NCBI GenBank assembly: GCA_964640155.1
Contig: CAZXEQ010000002.1
Location: forward strand, 210,001-242,000
From: an uncultured bacterium
GTDB lineage: Bacteria > Auribacterota > JACPWU01
Length of the DNA: 32,000 nucleotides
Reading direction: 5' to 3'
Within the stretch, counting starts at the first letter, position 1; every line of letters starts with the position of its first letter. Below, one piece after another: positions 6,461 through 31,998 of this stretch. The notes below the pieces were generated by a model. That model was not told where the DNA came from. It worked only from the letters and a program-made list of their open reading frames with translations, and searched no databases. The position numbers were made by a program, and so were the translations under genes.

Positions 6461-6517
6461 GGATTATATCCTTTACATCCATCACCAACCAACAATTCTA
6501 AAATGCTTGATAACTGT

Positions 6518-6546: not shown

Positions 6547-6591
6547 TTACGCAGCAGCTTCGATTTTGCGCTGGGCAGCAGCTTGTTGGAA
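6547..6591 (-). repeat. Functional copy of the 45-bp repeat: last 14 codons plus TAA of the giant ORF
   Basis: Partner of 5954..5998 (39/45 identical). Together the two copies bracket 5999..6546, which contains exactly the promoter, hicB and hicA. Confidence 0.8.
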
Positions 6592-9500
6592 GGCCTCTGT
6601 AACATTTCTCATGGCAACAGGTTGCATTGGGGGTAAGGGTTTGGAATCATCATAATCTGAAAGTGTTTTAGCAATCTCTGCAAGTTCATTTGCTTTAAAT
6701 AAGCCTGATTTTTCCAATTCTTGATTCAGTTGAGCCGCTGTCACTGGAGATTCATTGATTAAATTAATAACTGCAAAAAGTTGAGTCAGCACAGCCCCAC
6801 GCTCTGCTTGAACATAAGGAACACGTGCTGCTTTCAAGGCTTCACCTTTACCCCAAACCCCATCAAAATTATCCTTACAAAGGATAAATCTAAAAGAAGT
6901 AGCTGGTAATTCTTGAGCCCCAGGAATACGAGTTCTCAGTTGAGCAAGAACGTCTGTTGTCACATCTTGTCCTTTTGCCGTAGATGGAACAATAAGAGCA
7001 ACTGATTCTAACTCTTGATCTGTTAAACCCTCTGCTTTTAAAAGGCTTCTAGCGATTTTTTCACCTTCCGTTGCAATAACAGGAAGTTTCTTACCTCTCG
7101 CACGATAAGCTTGTACAATTGTTCTTAAACCAACACTTGAAAGTTTACCCGTACCGGTATCTCTCATCATCGCCATATCGATGACTGTGACTATATCCTT
7201 ATCAAAAACAGATTTCGACAAATCTGATGTCGGATTACTCATTTCTTTTGCAAAGGGATCTCGAGCTAAAACAGCTCTGCGTGTAGCTTCAAAATGGGCT
7301 TCCGTTCGATACTCTGACACTTTGCTTTCTGCGAGAGCGTTCAAGAAACCAGGAAGCTGGGTCACAAGATCGTTTAATCTCTCTAAAGCTTCTATTCTGC
7401 GTTCCTCGTCACGAATTCCTGGAATTAAATCTGCTAATTCTTTAGAAATTCCTTCTGTCTTTTTTGTGATCACTCCAGCCGAAACTAACATGGCAAAAAC
7501 GACCTCTGGAGCATCACTAATCCAAGCTTGCATCTCTGAAACGCTCAACTCTGATAAACCTTCTGCTGGAAGGTTGGCTAATTTTTCTTTCAAATTATTT
7601 TGAGCAAAAATGGTGTCGAATAAACCATTTCTAAAAATAAGTTCTTGCTCTGAACGTTGATCCACTCCAGATGCTTGAGTCAGAAGTCTTGTCAATAAAC
7701 GCTGCATTTTTGCTTTGCGAGCTTTTGCTGAAAGACGATAATGAGGAGTTGGAGCATCTGATCTTTCATCTGCCTTCATCCCTTCTAACATATTGCCAAC
7801 TGTACGATAACGCTGCAAACCTTCTTCTTCTTTTACATAGATTTTTTCAGAAGGATTACGGCTATACGGTTCAGAAAAATTTCCTCCTCTAATCCTTATA
7901 ATCGTTGCATTAACTTTTTCCCCAACCAGATAGGCAGCATAAGCACGGTTATGACCAAAACGCATAAAATAGCGTTTACGTCCTTGATCATCCGTTAATT
8001 CATACACAACCACAGGAGTTCTTTGATTCACAGGTTTATCAAATTCCCTTCTCAGCTCTTCCAACCGATAAACAACCACATCACTAAAGATAGAACCTTG
8101 CGTTGGAATAATTTCTGATGGGGCAATGACACGATTTTCCATCGTAATTTCTGAATCCCTGAAAACAGTTCCTCCTAATCCAACACCTGGAGTCTTAAGA
8201 TAAGTAATAATGCCAGGGGGGCGTGACTCTCTAAATTCCGTTCTTCCACCCACTGGCTCAATTCTCCCTCCCACAATTAATCTAGCCCAAGCTTTAAAGA
8301 AATCAAGCCGAGCAACTCTTTGAGGTTCAGGCCTAGATTCTAATTTAGAGACTAGATCATGAATAGTTTCTTCAGGATTTTCTTCAACCATCTTTATTAC
8401 AATTTGTTCTAGAATATGATTTTGAACAGAATCTTCGAAAGTGACTACTTTTTCTCTAGCATCTTTACCTAAGAACTCCTGAACCATCTCATAATGCTGA
8501 GATTTTCTATCATTGTGTTCTTTATAAAGAGCTATTAATTGATCTAGAGTTCTATTTTCAGCAGAAATTTGTTCTAAGAGGAATAGGACTTCGACAACAT
8601 TTGTCCATCTTTTTGCTTTAATATTTTCTTGAATTTGCATTGCCCAGGCAAGAATGTGAATGACACGCGATAGTGTAAACCCTGGATACTTTCCAGAAGC
8701 AAGTACCTCTGCTATCCTAACCTTGTATTCTTTTTCAATATAAATTTCAAACTGTTCATGCTGAAGAGCTGTATTAAAATCAGAGAGTCCTTTTTGAACA
8801 AGAATATAAGTCGTTTGTCCATCTCGAGATTTAAGATGATAGGCTCCTCCAATATTGCGCGAGGCAAAAAGTTGGGCTGCTACATCATTCGCTTCAAACT
8901 CAACGAGTTGATAAGAAATATTCCCCGCTGTATCTGGTGTTGTCCCAGTCGTTTTAGCTTCGGGAGGTAATTTATCTATATAGCTTCTTAAGCCATTCTC
9001 TTCTGCTTCTGTTAAAATGTTTTCAGTATCAGTAGTTGATACATCTACCACACTAACCATTTTACGAGCTCCACCTGATTTTTGACGGGCCTTAAAAGCA
9101 ATAAAGTTTGAGTCTCTTTGTAGGCGGGCTTGTGCAGCTAAAACGTCGTCAAGACTTGGGTTATCTCCTTTCGCTACATATTGTTTAGCTTTAACTATTA
9201 ATGCATCTCGCTCCCATGCTTTCATGGTAATCCATTCTAGTCTAAACACGCTATTAGAGGCTTCTATCCCAAATCTTTCGGTATTTAAGACAGAGAACAG
9301 ATACTCCAGACCCTGCTCAAGTAATGCAAATTCTTTATCTGCCATCACCTGTGATTGTCTTAATCTAGCTTCTCTATCAGCATCTGCCATCACCTCTAAT
9401 TTTCTTAATTCAGCTTCTATATCAGCTAAAGCTTGCTGTCTTGAAAAGAGAGGCTTTTCTGTCCATTTTAAGTCACTGGTCACAACCAGCTCTATCACAG

Positions 9501-12500
9501 CTCCTGTTTCCATCTTAACGGCCTTATAACGCCTTGTTCCATTTGCATCTACTGCTTCGATCTGACCAAAAATTGCATAGCCTTGTTTTACAGCCTCTGG
9601 ATATATTTTCTCAAGCGCTGCTATTTCTGCTTTATCAATATTTTTTGCAGAGGCAAATGCTCTTTCCTGAATTCTCGCAAGTTGGGCTTTTTGATTATCC
9701 TCTATACTTGTTTTCAATAATGCACTCACCTTGGAGCTTAATCCTATTTTTGGCTTTGTCCCTTCTTTATAATGTCGAGCTAATCTTTCTCCAAGAATTC
9801 CTTGTACAGCTTGGTTAAATTCTTGAACTTGGGGAGCTTCATTTGGAAAGAAACGAACAACCCATTTGTCTTGTTCACTTCTATCTGCTGTTAATTCATC
9901 TAATGCATCTTCAAATGAAAGATCTTTAAATTTACTTTGAATGAATTCTTCCAATGCCGGCAATTTCTGTGCGATGGTTTGAACATACTGGGTGCGAAGG
10001 CCGCCTGTATCAAGAACAGGAGTAAATAATTCTGAATTCTGTGCCATTCGAATGTCATTAGCCCAGGCCAAAACATGGAAGATTCTTTCAGCTGTATAGC
10101 CTTTGGGCAATCTTTTCTGAGCTTCCATTTCTCGGATTTCTTTTCCCCATTTGGTTTCTGCAAATATTTCTGAGAGTTCATGCTGTTTATAGAGGGCTCG
10201 ATTACTTGCATTTCGTGATACAAACACATAATGTGTTCCATCAGGCAATGGCAAATGAAATCCATTCGTGAGTTTAAGCTCTTTTGCTAAGTTCCCAATC
10301 GATGGTTTGTTCTTATCCTTAGGCGCAGGATCATTTTCATCAAAATAAATTAATTGATAGCGAATATTGATACCTTCAATTGCACAAGCCTCTTGAATTT
10401 TCTCTACCCCTTCTGCTTGAGCAACTGCCATCAATTGCTGAATTTGTTTATCTGTTAAACTTCTTGCTGTACTATGATTTGGCCCTGGGTCTTTCAAAGC
10501 ACCGACTGCATTTCTTACTACAGTTTCAGGTAAGGATAACTCCTTATACAGTCTCTCAGTAATTCCCATACATGATTTAGCAAAACGTTTTTCATTTTCT
10601 TCTCTTCGTTGAGCCCCCGGACCTACATCTGTGAGAATCCATCTTCCTGAATCGTCCAAGATCTTCCTAAGCATAACTGGCTCTGCATCCTCAGCATTTA
10701 AATACTTACCAGGTGGAGATTGATAACGTGTATTTTTCCATGAAGCTACCTCTAAAAGAACATTCAATGGTTTTCCACTTTCACCAAAAATTTCTTTAAT
10801 TCTTTTTTCTCTATCGCTCCTTAAAGAACTAGATTTTGTAGAAGAACCTAGATCTTCTTTGCGTTTCCCATACAAAGCCCAGTAAAGAAGATCCTCGGTA
10901 ATATTATCCATCTCGTTAGCAAATTTCTGATGCCCTCCTTGAAGATGGTAATTACCAGGTTGGCCTGAAAAATTTCTAATAGTAATTTTTCCATCATTAT
11001 CGATGGCAATATCTCTTAATGGATCAAAATCTTTACTAAAAGTCCGGTCGGGATTTTCATCTATTTCTTTTAATACATTATAAAGAAAACTCGCAACGCC
11101 TTTTAATCTTGCTCCTTTATCATCAGGAAGCGAATTCCACCAGTCTGCAAATACAACTTCTTTCCTGATAGTCACTTTTGGAGGCGTCCTTACAATTACT
11201 GGCATACCAACCAAAGGTTTCACTTCTTGAGGTTGAACAGGTAAAGGTTCTATGTATTTTTCAAAAAGAGGCTTTTCTGTCCATGTTAAGTCACTTGTGA
11301 TAACCAACTCTATAACGGCACCTGTTTCAAGTTTAATCGCTTCATAGCGTCGTGTACCATTTGCATCAGGCTTTTCGATCTGACCAAAAATTGCATAGCC
11401 TTGTTTCACAGCTTGTGGATATATTCTCTCTAATGAAGTGATTTCTGATTTATTAATAGCTTTTGCAGATGCAAACGCTTTTTCTTGAATTTTTGCTAGC
11501 TGAGCTTTTTGATTATCTTCTTTAGTTTGCTTTCGTAAACTCCATCCTACTTGTGTTCCTTCTCTATAATGTTGAGCTAATCTTTCTCCAATCACTCCTT
11601 GTATGCTTTGATTAAATTCTTGAACTTGGACAACCTCATTTAGGAAGAAACGAGTAACCCATTGGTCTTGTTCACTTCTATCGGCTGTCAGTTCATCCAA
11701 GGCATCTTCAAATGAAAGATCTTTAAATTTACTTCGAATGAAAACTTCTAAATCAGCTAATTTTTGAGCTTTTGTTTCAACATGCCCAGCTCTAAAGCCA
11801 GATGTGTTAAGAACGGGCGTAAAAAGTTCTGAATTCTGTGCCATTCGAATGTCATTAGCCCAGGCTAAAATATGGAAGATTCTTTCGGCATTATAGCCTT
11901 TGGGTAATTTTTTCTGAGTTTCCATTTCTCGGATTTCTTTTCCCCATTTGGTTTCTGCAAATATTTCTGAGAGTTCATGCTGTTTATAGAGGGCTCGATT
12001 ACTTGCATTTCGTGATACAAACACATAATGTGTTCCATCAGGCAATGGCAAATGAAATGCATTCGTGAGTTTAAGCTCTTTCGCTAAGTTTCCAATCGAT
12101 GGCTTGTTCTTATCCTTAGGAGCAGGATCATTTTCATCAAAATAAATTAACTGATAGCGAATATTGATACCTTCTATCGCACAAGCCTCTTGAGTTTTTT
12201 CTATTCCCTCTGCTTGAGCTGCTGCCATTAATTGCTGAATTTGTTTATCTTTTAAAGTTCTAGCAGTGCTGTGATTTGGCCCCGGATCTTTTAAAGCTCC
12301 CACAGAAGCTCTATCTATTACTGATGATTGTTTAGTAGAAAAATTTATTCTTTCAAAAATAGATTTCCAAACATCTCCTAACCGTAACCATCCAAGAACC
12401 GAAACTGCAACAGCTCCCAAAATTTTTATAAAAATAGGCACCCAGTTAACACCCATAGCTGCTCCAACAGCAGGCGCAGCACCCACTAATGCAGGTAAAC

Positions 12501-15500
12501 TTGGGATAGCCGCAATAATTAAAACAACAGATAAGAAAGGCAAGAATCGAGAAAGTAGTCCCCAAACTGTCGGGAATTTGGATGCAAAAACACTAAGGAC
12601 AGGTTGTTTTGGTCCTTGGTGAGGAATAAAAATACTCATGACACCCACCACAGCTGCACGAGCCGTGGTTGCCGTTTCATTGGCTTGAAGTCCTTGGGAA
12701 AGTTCCCCTCTTAAATTCACAATAGCGTCGTCTAAATTAGAAACATTTGTTTGAACAGAAGAAAGATCTCTCAAGACATCAGCCCATAATCCTAATTCTA
12801 TAAAGGTTTTCCCAGCGGTCGTTTCATTCAACCTTAATATTTCTCTTAAAAGATCTAACGAAGTTTTTGTCCCTGCCAAGACATCCACATCTTGTGCATT
12901 ACTTCGAAGCATTTCTGAATATCCCCTTAACGCTTCTAAAGTCAATGTAGCTGCTTGGCGACGAGCATTTGCCTGAAAACGTGGAGGTAGGTTTTCTGCT
13001 CTACTCATCAATTCCCGTGCCTGAATTAAAGAATTTTCAATATTTCTTATTTTTCTTTCTCTTTGTACACTTACCAAAACCTCGTTCATTCCAGAAATCG
13101 ATCTGATTCTTGCTCCGTAAGCTTCTATAACTACATTTGCATTTTTTCTTTGCTCAGACCCAAGTTGATCTAATCTAGCTGCAAGACGTTCTCGAACGTC
13201 TAAATAATGATTCATTATTTCTCTTTTTTGAACTTCATCCAATGTCTCTTGAGCCAAAAGATACTCGACATGTAAAAGATCCACTAAATCTCTCATTGTC
13301 AAAAATCGATCTTTAGGACTATAGGATAAAGATATTTTGATAATTTCACGAAGTGTATTGGGAATGTTTGGATTTTCATTTTCTAAAGCTGAAACAAAGC
13401 GATGGGTAAAGATGGCTTGGACTTGCTTAAATTGCTTAGCATTTATAGTTCCATCTTCATTATGACAAGATGTTTTTAATTTTTCTATTTCTAGTGGAGT
13501 TAATCCTCCATCAATATTTAATTCAAAAGGAAAACCTATCGTGAAGAGTTCACAAATTTCAAGAGCAAAAGACCAAACATCACTAGGAAAACTAATCGTT
13601 TCTGTAGAACTTCCAAGGACTTGTTTGACTCTCTCAGGAGCTGCACATTCAAGTCTTCCAAAGAAATCTTTTTCCCCTTCCTTTTCAATTTGTTTAACAG
13701 GAGCGGCAGATCCAAAATCAATCACTTTCACGTTGATGGCATTAGAATCTGCTACTGTTCCCGAAACCATTACATTATCTGAGTTGATATCTCGATGAAG
13801 AAGTCCTGCTCCATGAACTTGAGCCAAACCATTCGCATATTGGCTGGCCACGTGAAGTCTGGTTCTTAATTTAAGCTGAGGAGATTCAGTTGATTCAGTA
13901 ACTGTGGTCGAAAATTTTCCTAATTTTAATGCCTGAGGAACATATTCTATCACTAAAAATGAGACGGATCCTGTCTCTGTACTTTTTTGGTGATCTTGTA
14001 ATATAGCAATATTGGGATGATGACCGATTTTTTCAAGAGCAGAAACTTCTAAATCAAAACTTTTTTCCGCATCGTCTGTATTAAAAGGAACTTTAATAAC
14101 TACAGTTTCTAAACGTTCGTTTAGTGCTAGATAAACTCCAGCCATTCCTCCTTCATCTAACCAACGATAAATTGTATAAGCTTCCTTTTCTCCTTGTATG
14201 ATGATATTACGTTTTGCTAATTCTTCAGGAGACAAGCCAACTCTTATATCTGAAAGAGATATAACATCTTTTCTTAAATCTAGGGGGGGCTGTGGTTTTA
14301 TTGCTTCGCGAGGAACGCGATTTAGTTCAGATTGAACTGCTTTTTCTAGGCTTTGTAATTGTTGCCAACGAATAATTAAGTGATCATGTACCTCTTTTGA
14401 AAGGTTAGGAATGGCTTTTAATTGGCCTAAAGAAACTTCAATTTTCTTGATGCTTTTAAGAAAACTATCTAAAACTCCCAAATACGCCCAATCTGGCAAT
14501 AAAGTGCTCATTCTTTCTCTGTCATGAATAAGAGCAAAAAATACATCCACTGCAGCTTCCAATTTCCCAAGAGCCCTTCTATCAGTAGGTTCTTCTTCTG
14601 TTAATTTAACAACTTCAGCCAAAACATCTAAATCTAAAGCATTTGAAATGGCCACAGGCAAGTTTTGAACACGATTTTCTAAATCTTTTAATTCTCCACT
14701 CAATATCTTTTGATGTGTGTTTCTAGCCCTAGAAATAGCTCTATCCAAATCTGCTAAGATATTTCCTCTGGCTTGCATCGATTTAGAATAATCACTAAAC
14801 CCTTTTAATTGCATCGCTCTGGCTTCATAGGCACTTAAGATAGCTCCCACAGTTGCCTTGCGATCTCCTAGGTTTACTGCGCGCGCATCTAAACGACCTG
14901 CAATTTCAAAATAAAGTTGGCCTAATTCTTTTAATTGAACTTGATTTGGATTTTCTTCTGCTAAAAGTTTTTCTAAACTTAAAAAATCTGAAATATCGCG
15001 CATAGTCAATACACGCTCTTTTGGTTCTTTAGAAAGAGAAATTTTAAGAACGGCCTGTAATGTTTTAGGAATATCCTCTACTCTTTCTTGTTCTAATGCA
15101 TCAACTAGATTCCCAGCTAATACATCTTGCATTCTTTGGACTTCTTCTTCAGAAAATTTTCTTCCAAAGGCTACTTCTATCTTTCTAATATCTTCACTCG
15201 TGATGACATTTTGATCGGAAGTTTTAAAAGGAGAACCCTTTCTAAACACCGTTTCGTAAATCATGATTGCAAAAGCAAACACATCACTTTCGAGCCCAAT
15301 ATCTTTTCTAAGTCCATTTTGATCTAAAGTGCGTATTAATTGAATCAAACTATCTATACGTTCTCTAGACATGTAACTAGGAGTTAACAAAGGTATTTTC
15401 TCTCCTTCATTCTGAAGCGTTGAAAGACGAATCGCTCCTCCCATATCAATTACTTTAGCTTTTTGCCCTATAAGGAGATTACCTGGTTTTAAATCGCGAT

Positions 15501-18500
15501 GAACCCAGTTATAATCATGTAAATCGGCTAAACCTTGTGCCCATTGACCCAAACCATCTAATCTTCGGTAAAGTTTTGTTCTCTTTTCTTCACCTGTTAC
15601 TTCTGACCCTTCTGCGATCGTCTGAGAAAATTGATGCATATCTTTAGGATTTTCGATATTTTCAAGGACTAAAAATGGGAAAGAGTCTACTTTACCGTAA
15701 TCTTTAAACCCTACGATGTTTTCATAAAATGCCGGATTATCATCCTCATATCCAAACGTAACAAAGGCATCTTCTTCTATTTGAAAACTTTGCAAGGCAG
15801 CACTACTAAGATTTAAAGGCATTTTAATAACAACTATTTCATCCTTGTCTGTGTAAGCCAAAAAGACACGACCTAATCCACCTTCTCCGAGAACGTTATA
15901 AATCGTATAAGTACCACGAGGACTTGAGAGAACAACATTTTGAGAAGCAAGACTTTCTTTCGTCAATTCTAAATCATCTAAATTTTTCACCTTTGATAAG
16001 TCTTCGCTTCGCAAATCTCTAACTTTTTTCGACGAGAATCTTATTTGTAATTGCAAGCGTTCTGACGATGGAGCAGATACAGTTTTCAGTTTTGCCATTA
16101 AGGAAAAACCATAGGCTTGAATAGCTTCTCGCGCCAATGTCACGTCAATGCCTGCATCTTCTCTTGTTTGAAGCTGGGCTTGAAAACGATTGACTACTTT
16201 CACAAAATCTTGAACGATGGCTTGAACTTGATTTTCATCCTGTACCGCACCCGCCAAAAATCTTTCTGCTCTTAGAAGTGCTGCCATATCTTGCATGCTT
16301 AATAAGCGATTGCGAGGATTTTTAGACAAACTAATCTTAAGAATTTTTTGTAACGTCCGAGGTATTAAGGCTTCGGGAATAGTTTCATTCTCTAAGTCCG
16401 GAACTAAACGGCCCTCAAGTATTGCCTTTACTTTGGCTACATACTCTCTTCTTAAATCTTCATTCACGCTAGAATATGCTTGCTCTATATTAGCTAAATC
16501 AACGGGTGCAATATCCCTTCCATCTACAAGCTGAAAAGGTAAATTTTTTCCAAAAATACCTTCGTAAACATTTAGAGCAAAAGAAAAAACATCACTTGAA
16601 AGGTCAATTTCTTCCCCTTGAGGCCGACCAGCCAGAATATCTAAATAATTTCTTATCCGTTCTGGTGATAGATAATTTAGAATGCCCATAAAATTATCTG
16701 ATGTTTCTCCTCTTTCATGTATTTCAGACATAGAGATGGCTGCGCCAGGATCAATAACTTTAACTATTTCTTGGCCAGATTCACCGCTAACCAATGCATT
16801 AGTAGGCTGACAATCTCGATAAAGGATATTTCTGCGATGAAATTCCATTAAACCATTTGCCCATTGGCTACTGACACTCAATCTTCTTTGTAACTTTATG
16901 GAATCGTCTTCCAAAGAATAAGTAACAGAATTTCCATAATCATCCAAATATTGGTAATCAGCAATGTGATCAATCACAAGAAAGGGGAATTGCCCGATTT
17001 GACCGCCAGCTCTAAAACCAACAATATTTTGATAAACATCTGGATTGTCAGGAAAAGAACCAAGTGCTTGAAAAGCCGTTAATTCAAAATTTAAAGCAAC
17101 GCGTCCAGGGCCAGTAGTATCTAAAGGCAACTTAACAACGACAGTTTCAAAACGTTCATTGTAGGCTAAAAAGACTCTACCTAATCCACCTTGTCCCAAA
17201 ACCTTATAAATTGTATAAACTTCTTGTGCCCCATGAAGAATGACATTTTGTTCTCTTAAACTTTCTTCACTCAAACCTAACTCTTCAAGTGTAGTAACCG
17301 TGGTCAAATCAATTGAGTTTAAATCTAGAACGTGTAGTTTTCCCATGGCATCTAAAGGAACACCTATAGGTAAATAAGCAATTTTTGCTTCCAATGACTT
17401 AACCCATATCGCTTGAGATTTTCTCAGATGAGCCACGAGTAAATTTCGATAAGTATTGAGTGTATGAATAGCGGAACTTAAATCGAGTCCCTTTTCTTGC
17501 CTTTCTTGAGCTAAAGTTAAAAAGTTTTTTAGGGTCTGTTCAAAAGATTCAATAACCGATCTGGCCTGATTTTCATTAAAAGAATCGTTAGCTAGAAATT
17601 CCTCAGCCGCCATAAAGGCCATCATATCTTGCATGCTAAAGAAGCGTTCTTGAGACTCACGCGTCAAAGCAATTTTCAAGACTTGCTGAAGTCTTTTTGA
17701 AATTCCTGCCTTCGTACCTAGTTCTGAAGGAACGTCATCCCGTAAACTCTGACGGAAATTTCCCCTAAGTAAACCTTCTCTTCGAAGAGCTTGCCCTTCA
17801 TTTAATCTTTGTTGAATTTCTTGTAACTCTTCATGTATGGGACGAATTTCGTCTTCTAAAGCATTTCGAGTTTTTAAATCAGACATAGTCTTTGATAAGA
17901 CTCTCTTACGTGCCATATCTATATCTCGAGAAGCAAGTAAAACATCCAATCTTTCCGCTTGTTCACCAAAGGGATATCCCTCCCTTAAAATAAGTTGATG
18001 CACGATCAAAGCATAAGCAGAAACATCACTGGATAAATTAGTAGGTTCAAAAGCTTTATAAATTCTTTTTGTTAACTCTTTTTGATTTGGGACTGGATCT
18101 GAAGCTTCTAACAGAGGCTGACCAAGCAAAACATTCAACTGGTTTGCAATATCTTTTAATTCTGGTTCAGAAAGAGTCTTAGAAGAAGAAACCCTATTAG
18201 TTAACAAAGCAAGATTCTGTCCTAGATATCTTTCGCGAGACATCCAATTAGGCGTCCCCACATACACAAGTTCAATCCCCTTAGATTTTTGGAGTTGTGC
18301 TTCAGAAATAATGGCGCCCAAATCTATTAATTTAACTACAGGCACTCCATTCACTTCAATAATGAGAATATTCTCTGGTTTTAAATCTCTATAAATCCAT
18401 CCCTGGACATGAAGTTGGTTTAGCGCTGCAGCTAATTGACGAGCAATGGAAAAAGTTGTTTTGGGATCAGGATTTTTCTGTTGAATATATTCTTTTAAGT

Positions 18501-30500: not shown

Positions 30501-31998
30501 TCAACAAAGCTTCAAGTTCATTTGCCTTTGAAAATCCATGTCCTCTATTAAGAAGAGCTGTAGGAATATAAATGGTATAAATTAAATTCCCTTTGTCATC
30601 GACTTGGGACTCTGAAATCGCAGGAATAGGTTGAAGCCCATAACCTTCTCTTTCAAATCCTGTCACGTCTGGGCCTAAATCTACAGGCTGAACACGAATG
30701 AAAGCTTCTTGATATTGAACGCCATTGATCTCTTTAGCTTTTGCAAGCTGGATCTTAGATGCCTTTCTTTGACCTTTTTTCCCGGATTTCACGCCCAACA
30801 AAGCATCTGCAACCCGTTCACTGTGTCCTTGATAGCCTGGAATATCTCCTGCTCCTTCTAAGAGATCACTAACGCCTGTCTCATTAAAATCTTTCCCCGT
30901 CATAGGGACTTTGTTTCTACCTTGCTTCTGTACAATAGCTCGAATTCGGGTAAGTACTCTCGCTTCTTCATCACGCTCCAAATGAAACTCATTGGGTGCT
31001 CGTGCGGTGATGGGAGTTCCCGCCGCTGCAACGCTTAAGACTGCATCAGGGGGTTCGACGAATGCTAGAGCTGGTACTTCTGCTGGTACAGGAGCCCTAC
31101 CAGAATCAGTCAAAACCGCTCGACGAGTAGCAATCATAGTAATCCGCTTCTCCAACCCCTCAAACCATCCCTTCACAGGTTCTGAAAATTTTAACTCCTT
31201 TCGATTGGCACGATCAACATTCGGATCGAAGTCAAAAAGAAAATCTAAACTTTTCTGACCACCTGGAGCATCAGCTGTATAACTTGCCGCATCAGACATA
31301 TAAAAAACTTTTAAAATTTCAAAAAACTCTTGCATCGATTTTCCTGATTCACCTGCCATTTTTTGAATCACAACACTTGCTTCTTCTGCAGTTATGAGCT
31401 CTTTCATATATTCCCCCACCGGATCTCCACTGAGAAGTGCTTGAGCAAGTTTGATTTCATTTTCAGAACAATCAAGCTGTCTTAGAAGAAGTCCTACAAT
31501 ACGAACCGTGTGTATATGCTGATCTCTTTTGTCTCCTTGCATAATCGCTAAATTTTTTCCGATATCATGAATCGCAAGAATCATTCTAAAAAAAACTTTA
31601 TCCACACCAGGAATATCTCTATTGCCAAAATAATGTTCAAACTGACGTAAAACCATCTCTGTGTGTTGTTCAATGGTGTAACCCTCTACAAGGTCCGCGC
31701 CTGCTTCTAATTGTTCTTTAAGGAATGGGTTTGCATCCTTTAAGGCTTTTATGAAGGCTTGCGGGCTAAATGAAGTGGCCGATTGAGCTGCCAGCTGACG
31801 AATATTTGAAACATGGGAGCTATTAATACTCTTAAAAGTATTAGAAGAAAGTTCTGATAGTTTCTTTTGAGCTTCTTCAAATGCCTTCCAAAGCCCCGTT
31901 TCTTCGCGTAACACTCTATTTACTTTTTCTTTAGCCTTGCTGATAGCAGCTTGAACATCTGACCTATTTCGAATATTTTCTGGAACTTGTTTTAACAT
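6547..31998 (-). CDS. Giant multidomain membrane protein of at least 8,483 aa. Order: HD-like domain, hydrophobic cluster, 7 tandem Ser/Thr kinase-like domains, hydrophobic cluster, duplicated H-E-x-x-E modules, ParB/Srx-like domain. The 5' end may lie outside the window.
   Basis: A single open frame of 8,483 codons plus TAA in AT-rich DNA. The largest ORF in any other frame across this interval is 159 aa. Recognisable motif sets occur along the whole length (see the sub-features). The first ATG is at 31998..31996, 2 nt from the window edge, so no upstream stop is visible. Confidence 0.9.
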   Translation of the reverse strand: MLKQVPENIRNRSDVQAAISKAKEKVNRVLREETGLWKAFEEAQKKLSELSSNTFKSINSSHVSNIRQLAAQSATSFSPQAFIKALKDANPFLKEQLEAGADLVEGYTIEQHTEMVLRQFEHYFGNRDIPGVDKVFFRMILAIHDIGKNLAIMQGDKRDQHIHTVRIVGLLLRQLDCSENEIKLAQALLSGDPVGEYMKELITAEEASVVIQKMAGESGKSMQEFFEILKVFYMSDAASYTADAPGGQKSLDFLFDFDPNVDRANRKELKFSEPVKGWFEGLEKRITMIATRRAVLTDSGRAPVPAEVPALAFVEPPDAVLSVAAAGTPITARAPNEFHLERDEEARVLTRIRAIVQKQGRNKVPMTGKDFNETGVSDLLEGAGDIPGYQGHSERVADALLGVKSGKKGQRKASKIQLAKAKEINGVQYQEAFIRVQPVDLGPDVTGFEREGYGLQPIPAISESQVDDKGNLIYTIYIPTALLNRGHGFSKANELEALLKRRGPNIAAGALAHEVSEIIGYQPVRKDEKPRSITHSEAVQITSLYNEDIRSREDAQAGKAVLSDLLRLVMVRAAVQAEPLDITYLEGLGKPYNAIEKYLNLADRPQLHHEVSQRAVELSEEVTNYATTHLAYGYLVTNDRNPTKALNVLSERVDTVFSRGHPVLKRSGPANEVLQKEYDALKSEMKAVYEKLVSEVKLAELLSLLRDVNILMLISSRTYLDTAEWDLDHKHLKRLSAKIEAEHPSDAESPHPIRTLLTQVISWHDKIHPHRRIEKIIVRDAVGARAPPISDEKDITAEQEELALFATNIPEEGRIYKFFLNFLLHHAKDKDDQDRPLAFAILGKGTVRISALNTYDYVLGDLAKRLHLELARKYARQYARYVFPVGARVAVIMPEEIQKRIQKEFQEQFIVLAKEEIEKIKRATDSNNKDEITRCNNALTYLNNLKVETSSGEQPVDPIYQELYEDVRAENQTAYQARLEGGMQATLSDQVKDLKVGETFARIEDLVERITQLNKKLEERKKVVGEMYASDKDVIACKAKLWKLALLKERYYTLKRLQDVPKILSRSKILYVFFERKGIQSTSSRPPAPQPDTPVSFSSRDQMTVFAALKEEIMALGKEQNLAESIAEAWLRHLNTPGNKISGLKDLKVEALKRLEVPLSQEAWGHICENLEPLMGRLIILAERKQPPSFIESYVREAEKGVVVGFVQRTQDIEEFRAQQGAEAELLVEAYGLAGLPPYIFQSDNPREIGAIPDPDNLIGRAQQGLEFLGYHLAAVREGHAARASAQEGELDQYRENTLRYFYQEHTELSQRRSDEKEELQRQDKRGAVEILFRGFEAWLRAPESTRRTFGEFIVPWVGDERENFSASAYRHGISNEDKVKKLAAYEAAASDFDLINDVSRFTKENLENLNEVRRNYLKAKEVVLKKVYHDPRHSDFIRDDFFPFFVQQTFFEGGAFVDNPPKIRYYDSEKGVMVEKVPGISTKKGDEHWTVYRGKDGKVYMIHVDMDFYQALDLLQRRLGILPDNDATIYKTHESIRTIIAQGVEKGLSPQEVALSVIRHMTNNVDVNLNPQNLQGEALKRHNEKIKEYLDQYITPEHLLATGVVTSEEMDAIGISTEQRQGKNQGELAEMMVVKIRDRALEDYKIRMSVMVVDEQMKVLDSGKRVFTGRKTKVGATVGFGEVKQKSIKEIKKVFSDTSNGVEDAKFARVDDDGRTRSLKGTVVNVGSGNAIAPNGKVFENVQAKKSDTKDRERAQIGQIIKWLGELLKWSPYQRLNEFQMKEIAQILYMASEDRNARLPASVAMETIRTNFPHFTKVHEGKLWQILAARWYVGIANIPQRKGQSSPPETIGEVLKLMGKEKNLEDDYRSDLPPNSDWPVVVKRAREAGMLPAIVQLFFRSLFFRLFVGAISGATLFLAYTPLSMLWKVASAQQLPGAENLVQNVTQTVPNIAQPRSLASILVSPGTAIILFAISFVCFGFVALVQKYPNLWDRLIPFLKPAAMVVSVITVSVIAVTLILTSSVGVWFSLGLIFGGFSVFSYLAPQQFDRTLDAIGLGEYAFLSSLENARIFSKKANHRAAMQSYQDALINDPFSDEARKGFFEHFYAAEAEIDPSNLSAFEKGAQTLFLRKEMEDFLREVHQFPPLAQAFFWQDFRVLLRGSIIAQNVFFNYAQRAFESVKAIQDPLEREHAYQALLSSLTRYIVLPQDLLLAFGMPFSAKWQILLAQIQAARENEENLSSHVNLQFLETEETQALLFSSLEKLMGSAGNASSATAQYLKYSRLKAQVEAMIPSIISHRAKLDPRGTILTKLNLVLARVQRPLDEMTQPSREDLDEANQLTQEATQTTADEQLQTYTKAIENLEAAALTPHFPERTFAEGMATLTSIFNQIKVVNARGDSEQAGRLQKLAERLHRSLTLGIAKKDLRTGEAVLIAPWTSENQRETITHFYNDQTALESQDIQVLRKAFIALLDSSEFAQGNPDTVRRVEIFLNRLLERTASAEENWSLYDWGIHDLMGQLVARLSYLPEFIRRSPVFNNLWARLMTPRTQVLQKLRSLGISSDADSMQMLLDDFVERVKKTQDVESRNSLIYISSILLNRLLVLHPELIRVPRWRAYREKTDEEMSKEVYSSHQNNRNRAPDSDLFVRLMTLSKSRTPNKEVNASDILAVCLQILASRPTHPDVVLLFSQTITALEVMAPEIGNQNPYLAIRPYAAAVIALQNFEKTTGKVHPAKARIQSELTAEKKKIGRALGEIGVLIDQADSLTKSDVAEALEVYEQADALLSPLRSIAEIEAVRTLMPKITEQIEQYSGKLIGCWRNLQPDVLLEGKRKQLEEIAVRINVPIVLAPKTVQEIHRQAINEIIETMHVYEWILTARPDSIQAANLLYQTMTLVTELVQAQMNSLIWVSPEERKQAKHVLEITFAQIDAMLSYLERMSKIQNLPKDVAKDLQRVTSTLERFYIVNAQDIALPTNVKLEDIFFMSAESLRLRNVLLKDQAGHVYTIESVIAHSGMSIVYRALDSKGKKVAIKVDLERFYDDFIGAEAATFEKISPEYRARFIDYKGHGSWGPLSFLITEYAEDSENLEDYISTHSISFSEQLRISRECAEGMEGLHQQNIFDGDFKPSNVLVLPDGSTRRIDLGFCRKVEDLNVSNPAQRARNSILGSLYYMSPERHSMSRIFNEEDRSDLAGFEEKIKDIQVDFSSDIFSLALSFCELYGLGFPFVEDEILKIQAYRGQVQSELNALVGAQINLISLRVDQSAIDRVAADIARKRQEINGLIKKEQRARGDAIIKGELKEDIIQERSPPGRDPIPSTLFKILKISLSSDFKDRIFDIHDWVDFLKLEEIILGGIGTPDASFDAAMLLAKISNRVKARLKSENLDSLERVATLEEIIKAYENILGISTETIEDLLAADEDEAVLDMGEAAMVEDPDAPLGRGSQLSGGYTLVEEIGRGGYGSVWTATNSAGETVVIKLPLNKEAFDSFQAELNVFEFLEMQPEYCENIVRYRDKGTIEIKGETLPFIVFEYIENSKTLDVFMREAIESKTPQEVEALRLSLAVQLSQAVAAVDADGKGFLIRDIKPLNILITSQGKLKLIDFGAAISMDTLRSQSGREGDSVSGTLSFMAPERLMNMSVNEALNNPNITANTRSDLTSQLSTIDRSDVFSLALTMYHSVYGAAFPYHIRFYGYGADINALVREVETLFAQRHAKFKDLREAELARPDDPSTLALRAEYNDIDQAFSDKSGEIRDAKFKALLMGELNSDFEDNARKARVPEGLIPVLKISLAKDPKNRIFTAQDLADFIEMEHLLSQQKPEEADISYQRLLKRKTSQDLQSAELQKILLSYKNRINEALALMKAYTPRPDLAAGAKSLNDLGLSPEDLIQKGGVRIRDNNGEYYTIVRKLGQGGMGTVYLALTDSGQQVAIKFPHFNQIKGFQEELKAFNALGTRKDHPKNFEKIVGFDGEGKVGLYPFAVMEYLPNATELYDLTLDPSQVSMAGRLELGESLAQAIATLHALPEELAYRDLNPNNVVMTNGHMKLIDMGAALSVKNMERNAKGLRESNIMGVASFMAPDRLQNLYIIDDIHGLDRDLGVLKRQLDKLAENDPERNKVNASILELQERRREFIAAYLPFSISSDVYAYALVACEFMLGVGFPFSERKRFEQTIDELVEIQRASRKLSSEISRLETIRPDDPSISDKKALLAKMKNQTNRLVERKAEAILTSSVRNDFDTQAAHLTPQLRAVLKTSLSLKPQDRIYTMSHLRDFMRLEKILATENASKEDLENSLAALVEIEKSLQTRAVASSLYESVIAGYRQPLQDRYDAIAGVTPLTGTLVGEAPETQTTARHQIDLSTPESLNQFKADRPADWQPNTPADIGLSKGAFENVEFIVAGADGRKYTITDFVGEGAQGMVFRASDEDGLEFAIKFPKDIKDARGKDSPALTVFQTELDAFQELAKNKDSSFQNIVSYENHGVVGSIPFVVMEMVETPYNLKEYIQQKNPDPKTTFSIARQLAAALNQLHVQGWIYRDLKPENILIIEVNGVPVVKLIDLGAIISEAQLQKSKGIELVYVGTPNWMSRERYLGQNLALLTNRVSSSKTLSEPELKDIANQLNVLLGQPLLEASDPVPNQKELTKRIYKAFEPTNLSSDVSAYALIVHQLILREGYPFGEQAERLDVLLASRDIDMARKRVLSKTMSDLKTRNALEDEIRPIHEELQEIQQRLNEGQALRREGLLRGNFRQSLRDDVPSELGTKAGISKRLQQVLKIALTRESQERFFSMQDMMAFMAAEEFLANDSFNENQARSVIESFEQTLKNFLTLAQERQEKGLDLSSAIHTLNTYRNLLVAHLRKSQAIWVKSLEAKIAYLPIGVPLDAMGKLHVLDLNSIDLTTVTTLEELGLSEESLREQNVILHGAQEVYTIYKVLGQGGLGRVFLAYNERFETVVVKLPLDTTGPGRVALNFELTAFQALGSFPDNPDVYQNIVGFRAGGQIGQFPFLVIDHIADYQYLDDYGNSVTYSLEDDSIKLQRRLSVSSQWANGLMEFHRRNILYRDCQPTNALVSGESGQEIVKVIDPGAAISMSEIHERGETSDNFMGILNYLSPERIRNYLDILAGRPQGEEIDLSSDVFSFALNVYEGIFGKNLPFQLVDGRDIAPVDLANIEQAYSSVNEDLRREYVAKVKAILEGRLVPDLENETIPEALIPRTLQKILKISLSKNPRNRLLSMQDMAALLRAERFLAGAVQDENQVQAIVQDFVKVVNRFQAQLQTREDAGIDVTLAREAIQAYGFSLMAKLKTVSAPSSERLQLQIRFSSKKVRDLRSEDLSKVKNLDDLELTKESLASQNVVLSSPRGTYTIYNVLGEGGLGRVFLAYTDKDEIVVIKMPLNLSSAALQSFQIEEDAFVTFGYEDDNPAFYENIVGFKDYGKVDSFPFLVLENIENPKDMHQFSQTIAEGSEVTGEEKRTKLYRRLDGLGQWAQGLADLHDYNWVHRDLKPGNLLIGQKAKVIDMGGAIRLSTLQNEGEKIPLLTPSYMSRERIDSLIQLIRTLDQNGLRKDIGLESDVFAFAIMIYETVFRKGSPFKTSDQNVITSEDIRKIEVAFGRKFSEEEVQRMQDVLAGNLVDALEQERVEDIPKTLQAVLKISLSKEPKERVLTMRDISDFLSLEKLLAEENPNQVQLKELGQLYFEIAGRLDARAVNLGDRKATVGAILSAYEARAMQLKGFSDYSKSMQARGNILADLDRAISRARNTHQKILSGELKDLENRVQNLPVAISNALDLDVLAEVVKLTEEEPTDRRALGKLEAAVDVFFALIHDRERMSTLLPDWAYLGVLDSFLKSIKKIEVSLGQLKAIPNLSKEVHDHLIIRWQQLQSLEKAVQSELNRVPREAIKPQPPLDLRKDVISLSDIRVGLSPEELAKRNIIIQGEKEAYTIYRWLDEGGMAGVYLALNERLETVVIKVPFNTDDAEKSFDLEVSALEKIGHHPNIAILQDHQKSTETGSVSFLVIEYVPQALKLGKFSTTVTESTESPQLKLRTRLHVASQYANGLAQVHGAGLLHRDINSDNVMVSGTVADSNAINVKVIDFGSAAPVKQIEKEGEKDFFGRLECAAPERVKQVLGSSTETISFPSDVWSFALEICELFTIGFPFELNIDGGLTPLEIEKLKTSCHNEDGTINAKQFKQVQAIFTHRFVSALENENPNIPNTLREIIKISLSYSPKDRFLTMRDLVDLLHVEYLLAQETLDEVQKREIMNHYLDVRERLAARLDQLGSEQRKNANVVIEAYGARIRSISGMNEVLVSVQRERKIRNIENSLIQARELMSRAENLPPRFQANARRQAATLTLEALRGYSEMLRSNAQDVDVLAGTKTSLDLLREILRLNETTAGKTFIELGLWADVLRDLSSVQTNVSNLDDAIVNLRGELSQGLQANETATTARAAVVGVMSIFIPHQGPKQPVLSVFASKFPTVWGLLSRFLPFLSVVLIIAAIPSLPALVGAAPAVGAAMGVNWVPIFIKILGAVAVSVLGWLRLGDVWKSIFERINFSTKQSSVIDRASVGALKDPGPNHSTARTLKDKQIQQLMAAAQAEGIEKTQEACAIEGINIRYQLIYFDENDPAPKDKNKPSIGNLAKELKLTNAFHLPLPDGTHYVFVSRNASNRALYKQHELSEIFAETKWGKEIREMETQKKLPKGYNAERIFHILAWANDIRMAQNSELFTPVLNTSGFRAGHVETKAQKLADLEVFIRSKFKDLSFEDALDELTADRSEQDQWVTRFFLNEVVQVQEFNQSIQGVIGERLAQHYREGTQVGWSLRKQTKEDNQKAQLAKIQEKAFASAKAINKSEITSLERIYPQAVKQGYAIFGQIEKPDANGTRRYEAIKLETGAVIELVITSDLTWTEKPLFEKYIEPLPVQPQEVKPLVGMPVIVRTPPKVTIRKEVVFADWWNSLPDDKGARLKGVASFLYNVLKEIDENPDRTFSKDFDPLRDIAIDNDGKITIRNFSGQPGNYHLQGGHQKFANEMDNITEDLLYWALYGKRKEDLGSSTKSSSLRSDREKRIKEIFGESGKPLNVLLEVASWKNTRYQSPPGKYLNAEDAEPVMLRKILDDSGRWILTDVGPGAQRREENEKRFAKSCMGITERLYKELSLPETVVRNAVGALKDPGPNHSTARSLTDKQIQQLMAVAQAEGVEKIQEACAIEGINIRYQLIYFDENDPAPKDKNKPSIGNLAKELKLTNGFHLPLPDGTHYVFVSRNASNRALYKQHELSEIFAETKWGKEIREMEAQKRLPKGYTAERIFHVLAWANDIRMAQNSELFTPVLDTGGLRTQYVQTIAQKLPALEEFIQSKFKDLSFEDALDELTADRSEQDKWVVRFFPNEAPQVQEFNQAVQGILGERLARHYKEGTKPKIGLSSKVSALLKTSIEDNQKAQLARIQERAFASAKNIDKAEIAALEKIYPEAVKQGYAIFGQIEAVDANGTRRYKAVKMETGAVIELVVTSDLKWTEKPLFSRQQALADIEAELRKLEVMADADREARLRQSQVMADKEFALLEQGLEYLFSVLNTERFGIEASNSVFRLEWITMKAWERDALIVKAKQYVAKGDNPSLDDVLAAQARLQRDSNFIAFKARQKSGGARKMVSVVDVSTTDTENILTEAEENGLRSYIDKLPPEAKTTGTTPDTAGNISYQLVEFEANDVAAQLFASRNIGGAYHLKSRDGQTTYILVQKGLSDFNTALQHEQFEIYIEKEYKVRIAEVLASGKYPGFTLSRVIHILAWAMQIQENIKAKRWTNVVEVLFLLEQISAENRTLDQLIALYKEHNDRKSQHYEMVQEFLGKDAREKVVTFEDSVQNHILEQIVIKMVEENPEETIHDLVSKLESRPEPQRVARLDFFKAWARLIVGGRIEPVGGRTEFRESRPPGIITYLKTPGVGLGGTVFRDSEITMENRVIAPSEIIPTQGSIFSDVVVYRLEELRREFDKPVNQRTPVVVYELTDDQGRKRYFMRFGHNRAYAAYLVGEKVNATIIRIRGGNFSEPYSRNPSEKIYVKEEEGLQRYRTVGNMLEGMKADERSDAPTPHYRLSAKARKAKMQRLLTRLLTQASGVDQRSEQELIFRNGLFDTIFAQNNLKEKLANLPAEGLSELSVSEMQAWISDAPEVVFAMLVSAGVITKKTEGISKELADLIPGIRDEERRIEALERLNDLVTQLPGFLNALAESKVSEYRTEAHFEATRRAVLARDPFAKEMSNPTSDLSKSVFDKDIVTVIDMAMMRDTGTGKLSSVGLRTIVQAYRARGKKLPVIATEGEKIARSLLKAEGLTDQELESVALIVPSTAKGQDVTTDVLAQLRTRIPGAQELPATSFRFILCKDNFDGVWGKGEALKAARVPYVQAERGAVLTQLFAVINLINESPVTAAQLNQELEKSGLFKANELAEIAKTLSDYDDSKPLPPMQPVAMRNVTEAFQQAAAQRKIEAAA
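7891..8130 (-). other. ParB/sulfiredoxin (ParB-like nuclease/NTPase) superfamily domain (aa ~7957-8036)
   Basis: The segment reads VIAPSEIIPTQGSIF...TPVVVYELTDDQGRKRYFMRFGH(8016)NRAYAAYLVGEKVNATIIRI. From memory, the YF-x-x-FG-H-x-R-x-x-AAY...I-x-A-x-I block resembles the sulfiredoxin FGGCHRYAAY...IPAKLV active-site region. It also resembles the ParB GxxRxxA arginine patch. Confidence 0.6.
8626..8922 (-). other. Third, diverged copy of the H-E-x-x-E module (aa ~7693-7791)
   Basis: Three blocks align with copies A and B.
- NISYQLVEFEAND aligns with INIRYQLIYFDEND.
- AYHLKSRDGQTTYILVQKGLSDFNTALQH(7747)EQFEIY aligns with AFHLPLPDGTHYVFVSRNASNRALYKQHELSEIF.
- SRVIH(7781)ILAWAMQIQE aligns with ERIFHILAWANDIRM. 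Confidence 0.7.
9445..10512 (-). repeat. Internal direct repeat, copy B (aa ~7163-7518; contains the H-E-x-x-E module, H7273)
   Basis: Encodes VGALKDPGPNHSTARSLTDKQIQQLM...KQHELSEIFAETKW...ERIFHVLAWANDIRM...TSDLKWTEKPLF. It carries a 7-aa insertion relative to copy A in the segment after HYKEG. Antisense shadow ORFs 9900..10265 and 11865..12062 in the ORF track give nearly the same peptide, which confirms independently that the repeat exists at the DNA level. Confidence 0.9.
11263..12309 (-). repeat. Internal direct repeat, copy A (aa ~6564-6912; contains the H-E-x-x-E module, H6674)
   Basis: Encodes VGALKDPGPNHSTARTLKDKQIQQLM...INIRYQLIYFDENDPAPKDKNKPSIGNLAKELK...THYVFVSRNASNRALYKQHELSEIFAETKW...ERIFHILAWANDIRM...TSDLTWTEKPLF. 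This is near-identical to copy B, with a 1,797-nt offset at the repeat start and through the perfect run. Positions 11920..12058 are 100% identical to 10123..10261. Confidence 0.9.
12367..12657 (-). other. Hydrophobic cluster 2, two to four predicted transmembrane helices (aa ~6448-6544)
   Basis: Hydrophobic stretches: AAVVGVMSIFIP, LPFLSVVLIIAAIPSLPALVGAAPAVGAAMGV and WVPIFIKILGAVAVSVLGWLRL. The helix count is ambiguous by eye. Confidence 0.65.
13255..14181 (-). other. Protein kinase-like domain K7 (aa ~5940-6248)
   Basis: - Gly-rich loop: LDEGGMAGV (partly degenerate).
- Beta3 Lys: VVIK (K5969).
- AlphaC Glu: in FDLEVSALEKI.
- Catalytic loop: HRDINSDN (D6070, nt 13789..13791; the loop Lys is replaced by Asn).
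- DFG: D6094 (nt 13717..13719).
- Downstream motifs: CAAPER, PSDVWSFAL, PKDRFL. Confidence 0.85.
14960..15912 (-). other. Protein kinase-like domain K6 (aa ~5363-5680)
   Basis: - Gly-rich loop: LGEGGLGRV.
- Beta3 Lys: VVIK (K5392).
- AlphaC Glu: in FQIEEDAFVTF.
- Catalytic loop: canonical HRDLKPGN (D5502, nt 15493..15495).
- DMG: D5518 (nt 15445..15447).
- Downstream motifs: SYMSRER, ESDVFAFAI, PKERVL. Confidence 0.88.
16262..17220 (-). other. Protein kinase-like domain K5 (aa ~4927-5246)
   Basis: - Gly-rich loop: LGQGGLGRV.
- Beta3 Lys: VVVK (K4956).
- AlphaC Glu: in LNFELTAFQAL.
- Catalytic loop: YRDCQPTN (D5062, nt 16813..16815; the loop Lys is replaced by Gln).
- DPG: D5083.
- Downstream motifs: NYLSPER, SSDVFSFAL, PRNRLL. 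Confidence 0.85.
17585..18783 (-). other. Protein kinase-like domain K4 (aa ~4406-4805)
   Basis: - Gly-rich loop: VGEGAQGMV.
- Beta3 Lys: FAIK (K4435).
- AlphaC Glu: in FQTELDAFQEL.
- Catalytic loop: YRDLKPEN (D4538, nt 18385..18387).
- DLG: D4559.
- Downstream motifs: NWMSRER, SSDVSAYAL, SQERFF. Confidence 0.85.
19150..20289 (-). other. Protein kinase-like domain K3 (aa ~3904-4283)
   Basis: - Gly-rich loop: LGQGGMGTV.
- Beta3 Lys: VAIK (K3933).
- AlphaC Glu: in FQEELKAFNAL.
- Catalytic loop: YRDLNPNN (D4032, nt 19903..19905; the loop Lys is replaced by Asn).
- DMG: D4049.
- Downstream motifs: SFMAPDR, SSDVYAYAL, PQDRIY. Confidence 0.85.
20545..21651 (-). other. Protein kinase-like domain K2 (aa ~3450-3818)
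   Basis: - Gly-rich loop: IGRGGYGSV.
- Beta3 Lys: VVIK (K3479).
- AlphaC Glu: in FQAELNVFEFL.
- Catalytic loop: IRDIKPLN (D3585, nt 21244..21246).
- DFG: D3603.
- Downstream motifs: SFMAPER, RSDVFSLAL, PKNRIF. Confidence 0.85.
21935..22986 (-). other. Protein kinase-like domain K1 (aa ~3005-3355)
   Basis: - Gly-rich loop: VIAHSGMSIVY (degenerate).
- Beta3 Lys: VAIK (K3034).
- AlphaC Glu: in AEAATFEKI.
- Catalytic loop: DGDFKPSN (D3126, nt 22621..22623).
- DLG: D3144.
- Downstream motifs: YYMSPER, SSDIFSLAL, FKDRIF. Confidence 0.75.
25864..26328 (-). other. Hydrophobic cluster 1, about four predicted transmembrane helices (aa ~1891-2045)
   Basis: Hydrophobic stretches: LFVGAISGATLFLAYTPLSMLW, LASILVSPGTAIILFAISFVCFGFVALV, AAMVVSVITVSVIAVTLILTSSV and GVWFSLGLIFGGFSVFSYLA. 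Confidence 0.7.
30379..30729 (-). other. Possible diverged N-terminal copy of the H-E-x-x-E module (aa ~424-540)
   Basis: NLIYTIYIPTALL...GALAH(513)EVSEIIGY has the same strand-then-HExxE(I) layout as the C-terminal modules. H513 is encoded at 30460..30462. The overall similarity is weak. Confidence 0.3.
31264..31701 (-). other. HD-domain-like metal-dependent phosphohydrolase module (aa ~100-245 of the giant ORF)
   Basis: The H...HD...H...D pattern is present. It comprises EQH(112)TEMV; ILAIH(144)D(145)IGK, with the HD codons at 31564..31569; DQHIH(163)TV; and YMSD(235)AA. Confidence 0.55.

Follow-up and report, generated by a model that had tools for sequence, protein, structure and literature searches.

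Paired modules with a homogenised core in a giant gene of an uncultured JACPWU01 bacterium: an old duplication with probable later gene conversion

A giant gene in a 32,000 nucleotide (nt) stretch of DNA from an uncultured bacterium (GTDB lineage Bacteria; Auribacterota; JACPWU01) carries two copies of a module of about 350 residues that are perfectly identical over a run of 139 nt, and the question raised by this locus is whether the pair is young, as an earlier note based on the sequence alone had proposed, or whether an old pair has become alike again over part of its length. The stretch, referred to here as the window, comprises positions 210,001 to 242,000 of the forward strand of contig CAZXEQ010000002.1 in GenBank assembly GCA_964640155.1, and all coordinates are those of the window. 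We conclude that the recent event at this locus is the homogenisation of the module core and not the duplication. An old lineage-specific duplication, purifying selection on both copies and later intragenic gene conversion of the core together form the reading that we prefer, at a probability of about 0.8.

Two copies of one module in a giant reading frame

The features needed for the comparison are as follows.

6547..31998, minus strand: giant open reading frame (ORF) of 8483 codons, containing both module copies and a kinase array
11257..12312, minus strand: module copy A, amino acids (aa) 6563-6914
9439..10515, minus strand: module copy B, aa 7162-7520, with 2+5 extra codons at ~nt 9721-9756
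10516..11256, minus strand: spacer of 247 aa (aa 6915-7161), not duplicated
11827..12174, minus strand: low-divergence (presumed converted) segment in copy A, with 14 differences from its partner in 348 nt
10030..10377, minus strand: low-divergence (presumed converted) segment in copy B
11920..12058, minus strand: 139-nt perfectly identical run in copy A
10123..10261, minus strand: 139-nt perfectly identical run in copy B

The modules, each of about 350 residues, span VGALKDPGPNHSTAR to TEKPLF, which is aa 6566-6912 in A and 7165-7518 in B, and the edges of their homology are sharp (~12318 / 10521 and 11263 / 9445). Every number given in the earlier note was borne out. Both copies lie in one minus-strand ORF and are 599 codons (1797 nt) apart in the same frame over the proximal two thirds of the module; the spacing shifts to 1818 nt over the distal third because copy B includes 2+5 extra codons, the 7-codon indel that had been reported. 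The perfect identity also held on a base-by-base check, with 139 of 139 positions of 10123-10261 and 11920-12058 matching without interruption, and this is the longest run at an offset of 1797. It encodes AFHLPLPDGTHYVFVSRNASNRALYKQHELSEIFAETKWGKEIREME, which includes an invariant HExxE core. The spacer, put earlier at about 250 aa and called unique, has no counterpart after copy B, and its homology to the region that follows copy B was rejected because 346 of 500 shuffles scored as well as or better than the real comparison. The description of the two modules as nearly identical was, however, overstated, as A and B share 84.6% nucleotide and 83% amino acid identity over their whole length.

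The spacer is homologous to the WWxSLP...FDPLxDI domain that succeeds each module in P0001, a protein of 5549 aa (E = 7e-154) that was the sole close homologue among the 13 proteins found in the search described below. P0001 is encoded on an NCBI contig of 620,977 bp and was compared as protein. Like the window protein, it contains three full modules (aa 2072-2397, 2620-2968 and 3552-3888) plus a kinase, and in P0001 every module is trailed by a WWxSLP/FDPL domain. Its first two modules are 40-42% identical to A and B and its third 29-30%. Unlike A and B, the modules of P0001 are only 26-34% identical to one another, with no near-identical pair among them and no sign of recent homogenisation, and the near-identical pair is thus peculiar to the window genome. 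The duplication itself appears to be lineage-specific, in that A and B resemble each other (83%) more than any other module found and stand equally far, at ~41% identity, from the modules of P0001. One-to-one orthology of A and B with the first two modules of P0001 was rejected, as no site pattern supporting it was found (0 versus 1 informative sites).

Loss of silent divergence at the module core

The comparison of A with B covered 352 aligned codons (1056 aligned sites) and found 163 differences, with synonymous (dS) and non-synonymous (dN) divergence obtained by a simple Nei-Gojobori estimate. Over the whole module dS is 0.53 and dN/dS is 0.19, but these values conceal two very different parts. 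In a likelihood scan, the best two-rate partition separated a 348-nt segment that is 4.0% divergent from the remainder, which is 21.0% divergent (log-likelihood ratio 31). Within the central segment (10030-10377 / 11827-12174), where there are 14 differences, dS is 0.13, dN is 0.02 and dN/dS is 0.15, whereas for the rest of the module dS is 0.84, dN is 0.14 and dN/dS is 0.17. Outside the segment, the proportion of synonymous sites that differ (pS) is 0.50, that is, half of them, and the contrast between synonymous sites inside and outside is significant by Fisher's test (P = 4e-9). The earlier proposal to compare synonymous with non-synonymous differences thus proved informative, giving a dS of 0.13 inside the segment and 0.84 outside it at a similar dN/dS (~0.15-0.17). 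As the dS outside the segment is 0.84 and dN/dS there is 0.17, the duplication that produced A and B is old and both copies are under purifying selection.

These values do not sit with the claim of a very recent 1.05-kb duplication, under which the whole module would have been copied a short time ago and the scattered substitutions would be young. The 139-nt run and several further runs of 20-40 nt at the same offset speak for such an event. However, a young segmental duplication is recognised by uniform identity and near-zero silent divergence throughout, and here 163 of 1056 aligned nt differ, the differences are strongly clustered, two indels separate the copies, and the sequence outside the core has diverged by 21% at a dS that reflects change at half of its synonymous sites. 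We find a recent duplication of the whole module scarcely credible.

The identical run is also far beyond what the overall divergence would allow. It includes 30 synonymous sites; at the outside rate ~15 of these should differ, and 0 do (P ~ 7e-10). When the 163 differences were shuffled 20,000 times, the mean length of the longest identical run was 33 nt and no shuffle gave one above 82 nt, and in a Sawyer-type permutation the 53 consecutive silently variable codons that are identical in A and B were matched by only 1 of 20,000 silent-site shuffles. Conservation of the amino acid sequence alone is insufficient to explain the silent identity because codons 6608-6637, which have 0 replacement differences, carry 5 silent ones. 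Away from the core, pS climbs in steps of 0, 0.05, 0.2, 0.3, 0.4 and 0.6.

Selection on the nucleotide sequence itself, via an RNA or regulatory element, an overlapping frame or an extreme codon preference, could keep the run identical without any conversion, and the run does overlap the most conserved part of the protein and is crossed by small alternative-frame ORFs (9900-10265 and 11865-12062). However, these ORFs are short and of unequal lengths in A and B, and further stretches of the module that are fully conserved in amino acid sequence do show silent differences. An RNA element, promoter or terminator in the run was rejected, as Rfam returned nothing at E <= 1 over 9000-12600, the predicted RNA fold of the run is no better than that of shuffled sequences (z = -0.42) and promoter-like or terminator-like sites are not enriched there. 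We consider selection of this kind very improbable.

The perfect identity, or the second copy itself, might instead be an artefact of bubble merging or consensus collapse in a short-read assembly graph, and the earlier note had itself warned that short-read assemblies can collapse or expand such repeats. The source is an environmental genome known at the level of its assembly, the 139-nt run exceeds common k-mer sizes, and assemblers that merge bubbles can remove a few single-nucleotide polymorphisms. Against this, 15% of sites differ between the copies and the differences bear the mark of selection (dN/dS = 0.17), something no artefact yields; the mismatch at 10262 that adjoins the run was kept by the assembler, and the source contig is 501,885 bp long. 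The product of the tsaD gene beside the giant gene is also present on two Logan contigs, from SRR8893623 and SRR31893870, both 100% identical to the window; a literature search for these two run numbers found no mention of either. The contig from SRR8893623 (L001), which is an independent assembly, corresponds to window 2184-9585 at 100% identity over 7.4 kb and ends inside copy B. Positions 9556-9588 form a 33-nt stretch common to copy A at offset 1818, and in a graph with k=31 the last 31-mer unique to copy B ends at 9585, the exact end of L001, as expected if the reads hold both copy contexts. A spurious second copy or a wholesale merging of bubbles is unlikely, and an assembly artefact of any kind is in our view improbable. 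The warning is thus largely answered with respect to the existence of two diverged copies, while the exact 139/139 identity remains an assembly-level observation.

What is observed, then, is a pair of paralogous modules, both constrained by selection, in which silent divergence falls away within sharp limits at the core. The copies lie in one ORF of one genome and their silent identity in the core is well above that of the flanks by each of the three tests given above, which is the pattern expected of a conversion tract. The possibility of ongoing gene conversion, mentioned in the earlier note as the other option, gains support because dS is down to 0.13 across the 348-nt segment and silent differences vanish altogether in the 139-nt core. 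From this pattern we infer the recombination mechanism and the number of conversion events. In the sequence of events that we propose, a module of ~350 aa would have been duplicated long ago within the giant gene, in this lineage only, and purifying selection would have kept both copies functional. Long afterwards, homologous recombination of the RecA type between direct repeats 1.8 kb apart would have overwritten a short patch of one copy with sequence from its partner, as intragenic non-allelic gene conversion in at least one tract, wiping out the silent differences that had accumulated over ~350 nt, and the latest event would have left 139 nt perfectly identical. Conversion at the conserved, catalytic-looking core where the patch lies would be self-reinforcing, because the longest identical stretches, from which recombination starts, remain there. 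The stepwise increase in pS with distance from the core points to events that were nested and differed in age.

Several points weigh against this explanation. The graded rise in pS requires either several nested events or a decaying heteroduplex, a dS of 0.84 is close to saturation for a simple Nei-Gojobori estimate, the perfect identity rests on a single genome sequence of the gene at the level of its assembly, and the comparison of tract with flanks covers A and B only, the contig scans described below having returned no orthologous DNA and P0001 having been compared as protein.

The age of the duplication is the part most exposed to an alternative. The order A, spacer, B may be ancestral and shared with the P0001 order of first module, domain and second module (P1_a-domain-P1_b), with concerted evolution of the whole module having repeatedly homogenised the copies, which would look young for that reason alone. 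The dS of 0.84 would then date the last full-length homogenisation, making this a variant of the preferred explanation that differs only in the age given to the duplication. P0001 does likewise have a module, a WWxSLP/FDPL domain and a module in that order, its alignments to copy A continue into the spacer, and gene conversion is, to judge from the silent sites, demonstrably active at the A/B locus. However, residual sites linking A to P1_a and B to P1_b are lacking (the same 0 versus 1 informative sites), copy B is not followed by that domain, and the edges of homology are sharp. We think an ancestral arrangement unlikely.

Conversion of this type has well known counterparts. Non-allelic gene conversion and concerted evolution are familiar from tufA/tufB in Salmonella and from rRNA operons, and near-identical repeats occur in large surface proteins such as Rib/alpha-C, SasG and Bap. 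With the textbook gene-conversion systems the A/B pair shares direct repeats in one replicon and a contiguous tract, a few hundred nt long and centred where conservation is highest, in which silent identity is far above that of the flanks. It differs in that two dispersed enzyme-like modules, with a period of 599 codons, lie in one 25-kb gene and are neither tandem structural repeats nor separate genes, and in that only about one third of the module is homogenised.

The identical run is also a plausible hotspot for changes in copy number, as had been suggested. Because the 139-nt identity is direct and in frame, unequal recombination is possible, and an unequal exchange at the run would remove or add exactly 599 codons, which is one module plus the spacer. 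Copy number may therefore vary among strains.

The giant gene and its neighbourhood

Further features of the giant gene are listed here.

12799..23181, minus strand: seven Ser/Thr protein-kinase repeats (aa ~2940-6400), from Pfam
12376..12570, minus strand: hydrophobic cluster (aa 6477-6541) with 2-3 predicted membrane helices, from a Kyte-Doolittle scan only
9337..9426, minus strand: 45-nt (15-aa) tandem repeat, 87% identical, directly after copy B
8083..9078, minus strand: third, diverged module copy C (aa 7641-7972), 23-26% identical to A and B

The giant ORF has ATG as its first in-frame codon, at the window edge (31996-31998). The true start may lie upstream of this edge, because the giant protein has neither the N-terminal signal or transmembrane segment nor the 'IQDxHxNYExQ ... 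GG(F/Y)HT' domain, both of which are common to the same seven members of the module family. Pfam identified seven Pkinase domains in the giant ORF and no other family, and Pfam and NCBIfam gave no match in A, B, the spacer, the first ~2,900 aa before the kinase array or the last 511 aa. As modules A and B, like the spacer, do not match the Pkinase profile (PF00069) that the seven repeats at aa 2940-6400 do match, the duplicated module is not a kinase repeat. The kinase repeats share only 25-36% amino acid identity pairwise, in agreement with the earlier remark that they are far more diverged than the module copies. The only further repeat in the gene at the nucleotide level is one of 113 nt between neighbouring kinase repeats (15798-15910 / 17106-17218, 1308 nt apart), which is 73% identical, and recent homogenisation was not seen there. 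The 45-nt tandem repeat after copy B sits in a coiled-coil-like stretch.

The hydrophobic cluster listed above is placed between the kinase array and copy A. A second such cluster, with ~4 predicted membrane helices, was found by the same scan at 25864-26328 (aa 1891-2045), and the two flank the region holding the seven kinases, one on each side. On this hydropathy scan only, the kinases and the HExxE modules may lie on opposite sides of a membrane.

The organism was placed using TsaD, which is encoded beside the giant gene. The nearest named relatives of this protein are 70% and 69% identical and come from metagenome-assembled genomes (MAGs) labelled "Chlamydiae bacterium", and the contig that carries the 70% relative belongs to GCA_016196885.1 and has an accession beginning with JACPWU01, which is also the GTDB name for a phylum-level groundwater lineage (PMC11382960). 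In a scan of genome contigs with TsaD, the matches listed were ~50-56% identical and from unrelated phyla. Window positions 834-6547 were also compared with three loci (L084, L085 and L088) in which TsaD is 70-77% identical. The upstream gene order is kept along with tsaD, with an epimerase and an S41 protease followed in L084 and L085, though not in L088, by a YibQ-like deacetylase. Downstream, the related loci have larB/larC-like genes, or an AAA-ATPase gene and a Na/Pi transporter, in place of the toxin-antitoxin pairs and the giant gene. As the giant gene is absent downstream of tsaD in all three related loci, where tblastn with the giant protein was also blank, it is on these comparisons a lineage-specific occupant of the tsaD locus.

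Two toxin-antitoxin pairs lie between tsaD and the giant gene on the minus strand, one ParE/Phd-like (5250-5845) and one HicA/HicB-like (6010-6460). A 45-nt copy of the 3' end of the giant gene (6547-6591) is found 593 nt downstream at 5954-5998, is 87% identical to it and translates as FQQAAVNRKIEAAT, the real end of the giant gene being FQQAAAQRKIEAAA. The two 3'-end copies flank the HicA/HicB-like cassette, and it looks as if this toxin-antitoxin cassette was inserted at the end of the giant gene with a target duplication.

The module as a domain family

Neither the third copy, C, nor the family to which the module belongs was mentioned in the earlier note. The module is an undescribed domain family of few members, with no curated model and no structural neighbour. 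When 1.84 billion representative proteins were searched exhaustively with HMMER, only 13 matched (P0001-P0013), of which those other than P0001 have one or two copies of a core of ~250 aa and are mostly proteins of 2000-5900 aa. The NCBI labels of these relatives are Omnitrophota, Elusimicrobiota and "Chlamydiae bacterium" MAGs, the "Chlamydiae"-labelled ones being groundwater MAGs. Word-indexed protein searches with copy A and with an alignment of 20 copies found no module relatives, nor did scans of genome contigs and metagenome contigs, and PDB sequences gave no match to the module. For most of the Omnitrophota and 'Chlamydiae' members, copy C beats A and B by BLAST E-value. The module occurs with Ser/Thr kinases in P0001, P0003, P0006 and the window protein, and in other members with methyltransferase, esterase or AAA domains; P0005 appears by eye to have an intein-like insertion.

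The family consensus is GGA[RL]K ... YxFV ... QHExxEI ... RxAHILAWAxQI ... DRSxH ... FExSV, and seven residues are invariant in the 20 copies (H6674, E6675, E6678, H6709, W6713, R6774 and F6795 in the numbering of the window protein). Copy C begins with GGARK and retains QHExxEI and HILAWA. The motif [GAV]G[AG][RL][KR] has exactly three occurrences in the 8483 aa of the giant protein, all at N-terminal module edges, while of 24 family-wide occurrences of the looser G[AG][RL][KRT], 15 are at module starts. On a motif scan only, a further HExxE-type site, the fourth, was picked up at ~30445-30460 (aa 513-518). It reads AHEVSEI, follows a strand-like segment (YTIYIP) in the N-terminal region, which is unannotated, and might be distantly related to the module core.

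AlphaFold2 reached a pLDDT (predicted local distance difference test) of only 44 with a three-sequence input but 81, with a predicted template modelling (TM) score of 0.81, when given the alignment of 20 family copies. In the predicted model, the first 31 residues of the modelled segment, including VGALK, are disordered. An initial helix then leads into four strands, split into pairs by a short helix; after these come the long helix that holds HExxE, a further helix with the invariant His, 35 residues on from that motif, and lastly a helical bundle. The 139-nt run corresponds exactly to the strand-strand-HExxE-helix core. Foldseek searches of PDB and BFVD found nothing significant (best E = 0.09, TM = 0.14). 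The top weak names were of the Pol-beta-type nucleotidyltransferase fold (probability 0.10), which was rejected on these scores and because the module has no conserved G[GS]/DxD motif and its invariant residues are on helices.

A metal site formed by H6674 and E6678 on one helix face and H6709 on the next helix, with E6675 as the base, is a reasonable inference from the model. In zincins, HExxH lies on the active-site helix and the third ligand on the next helix. The module resembles these metallopeptidases in its predicted topology (helix, strands, H-E-x-x-E helix, His helix) and in having H and E at i and i+4, which might coordinate a metal while the neighbouring E served as base. However, all 20 copies have H-E-x-x-E and not HExxH, and the module has no Pfam or NCBIfam peptidase match, no match among PDB sequences and no significant Foldseek match. 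By these searches it resembles no known family of peptidases in sequence or fold; the zincin resemblance of the predicted model is a lead only. HExxE and ExxE are known as iron-binding motifs (PMC4358008), and a literature search for 'HExxE' returned only iron-sensing motifs (PmrB, Ftr1) and an apparent misprint of HExxH in a CLCA1 preprint.

The setting of the module recalls the giant multi-domain proteins of Omnitrophota and other uncultivated bacteria (bioRxiv 10.1101/2023.11.21.568195; bioRxiv 10.64898/2026.06.07.730766), which are likewise very long membrane-anchored ORFs with repeated enzymatic domains, and Omnitrophota proteins are among those with relatives of the module. The window organism differs in being closest to the 'Chlamydiae bacterium' MAGs of GTDB lineage JACPWU01, and the architecture of seven Ser/Thr kinases and three HExxE modules is not described in the portions available of either paper. 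Domain repeats in giant bacterial proteins are reported to stem mostly from old duplication and divergence and not from recent tandem expansion (bioRxiv 10.64898/2026.06.07.730766), and the A/B duplication fits that pattern. The cleavage points of giant proteins, and whether they are processed at all, are stated to be unknown in the other paper (bioRxiv 10.1101/2023.11.21.568195).

Concerted evolution by gene conversion is in itself an ordinary phenomenon; the domain family is not ordinary. The A/B pair provides a quantifiable case of how a repeated enzymatic module evolves in a giant gene, namely by old duplication, purifying selection and short conversion patches. The module is the more valuable by-product, being a rare family with an HExxE...H signature and a GGA[RL]K linker found in giant proteins of several uncultivated phyla, and it offers a concrete, testable candidate for the question of giant-protein processing. 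Specifically, it might be a metal-dependent processing domain acting on the GGA[RL]K of its own disordered N-terminal linker, with H6674, E6678 and H6709 as the metal ligands and E6675 as the base, the giant proteins being polyproteins, though we regard this as improbable. If it were true, giant proteins of Omnitrophota, Elusimicrobiota and JACPWU01-like bacteria would be cut at GGA[RL]K motifs, and gene conversion would hold the paralogous catalytic cores identical.

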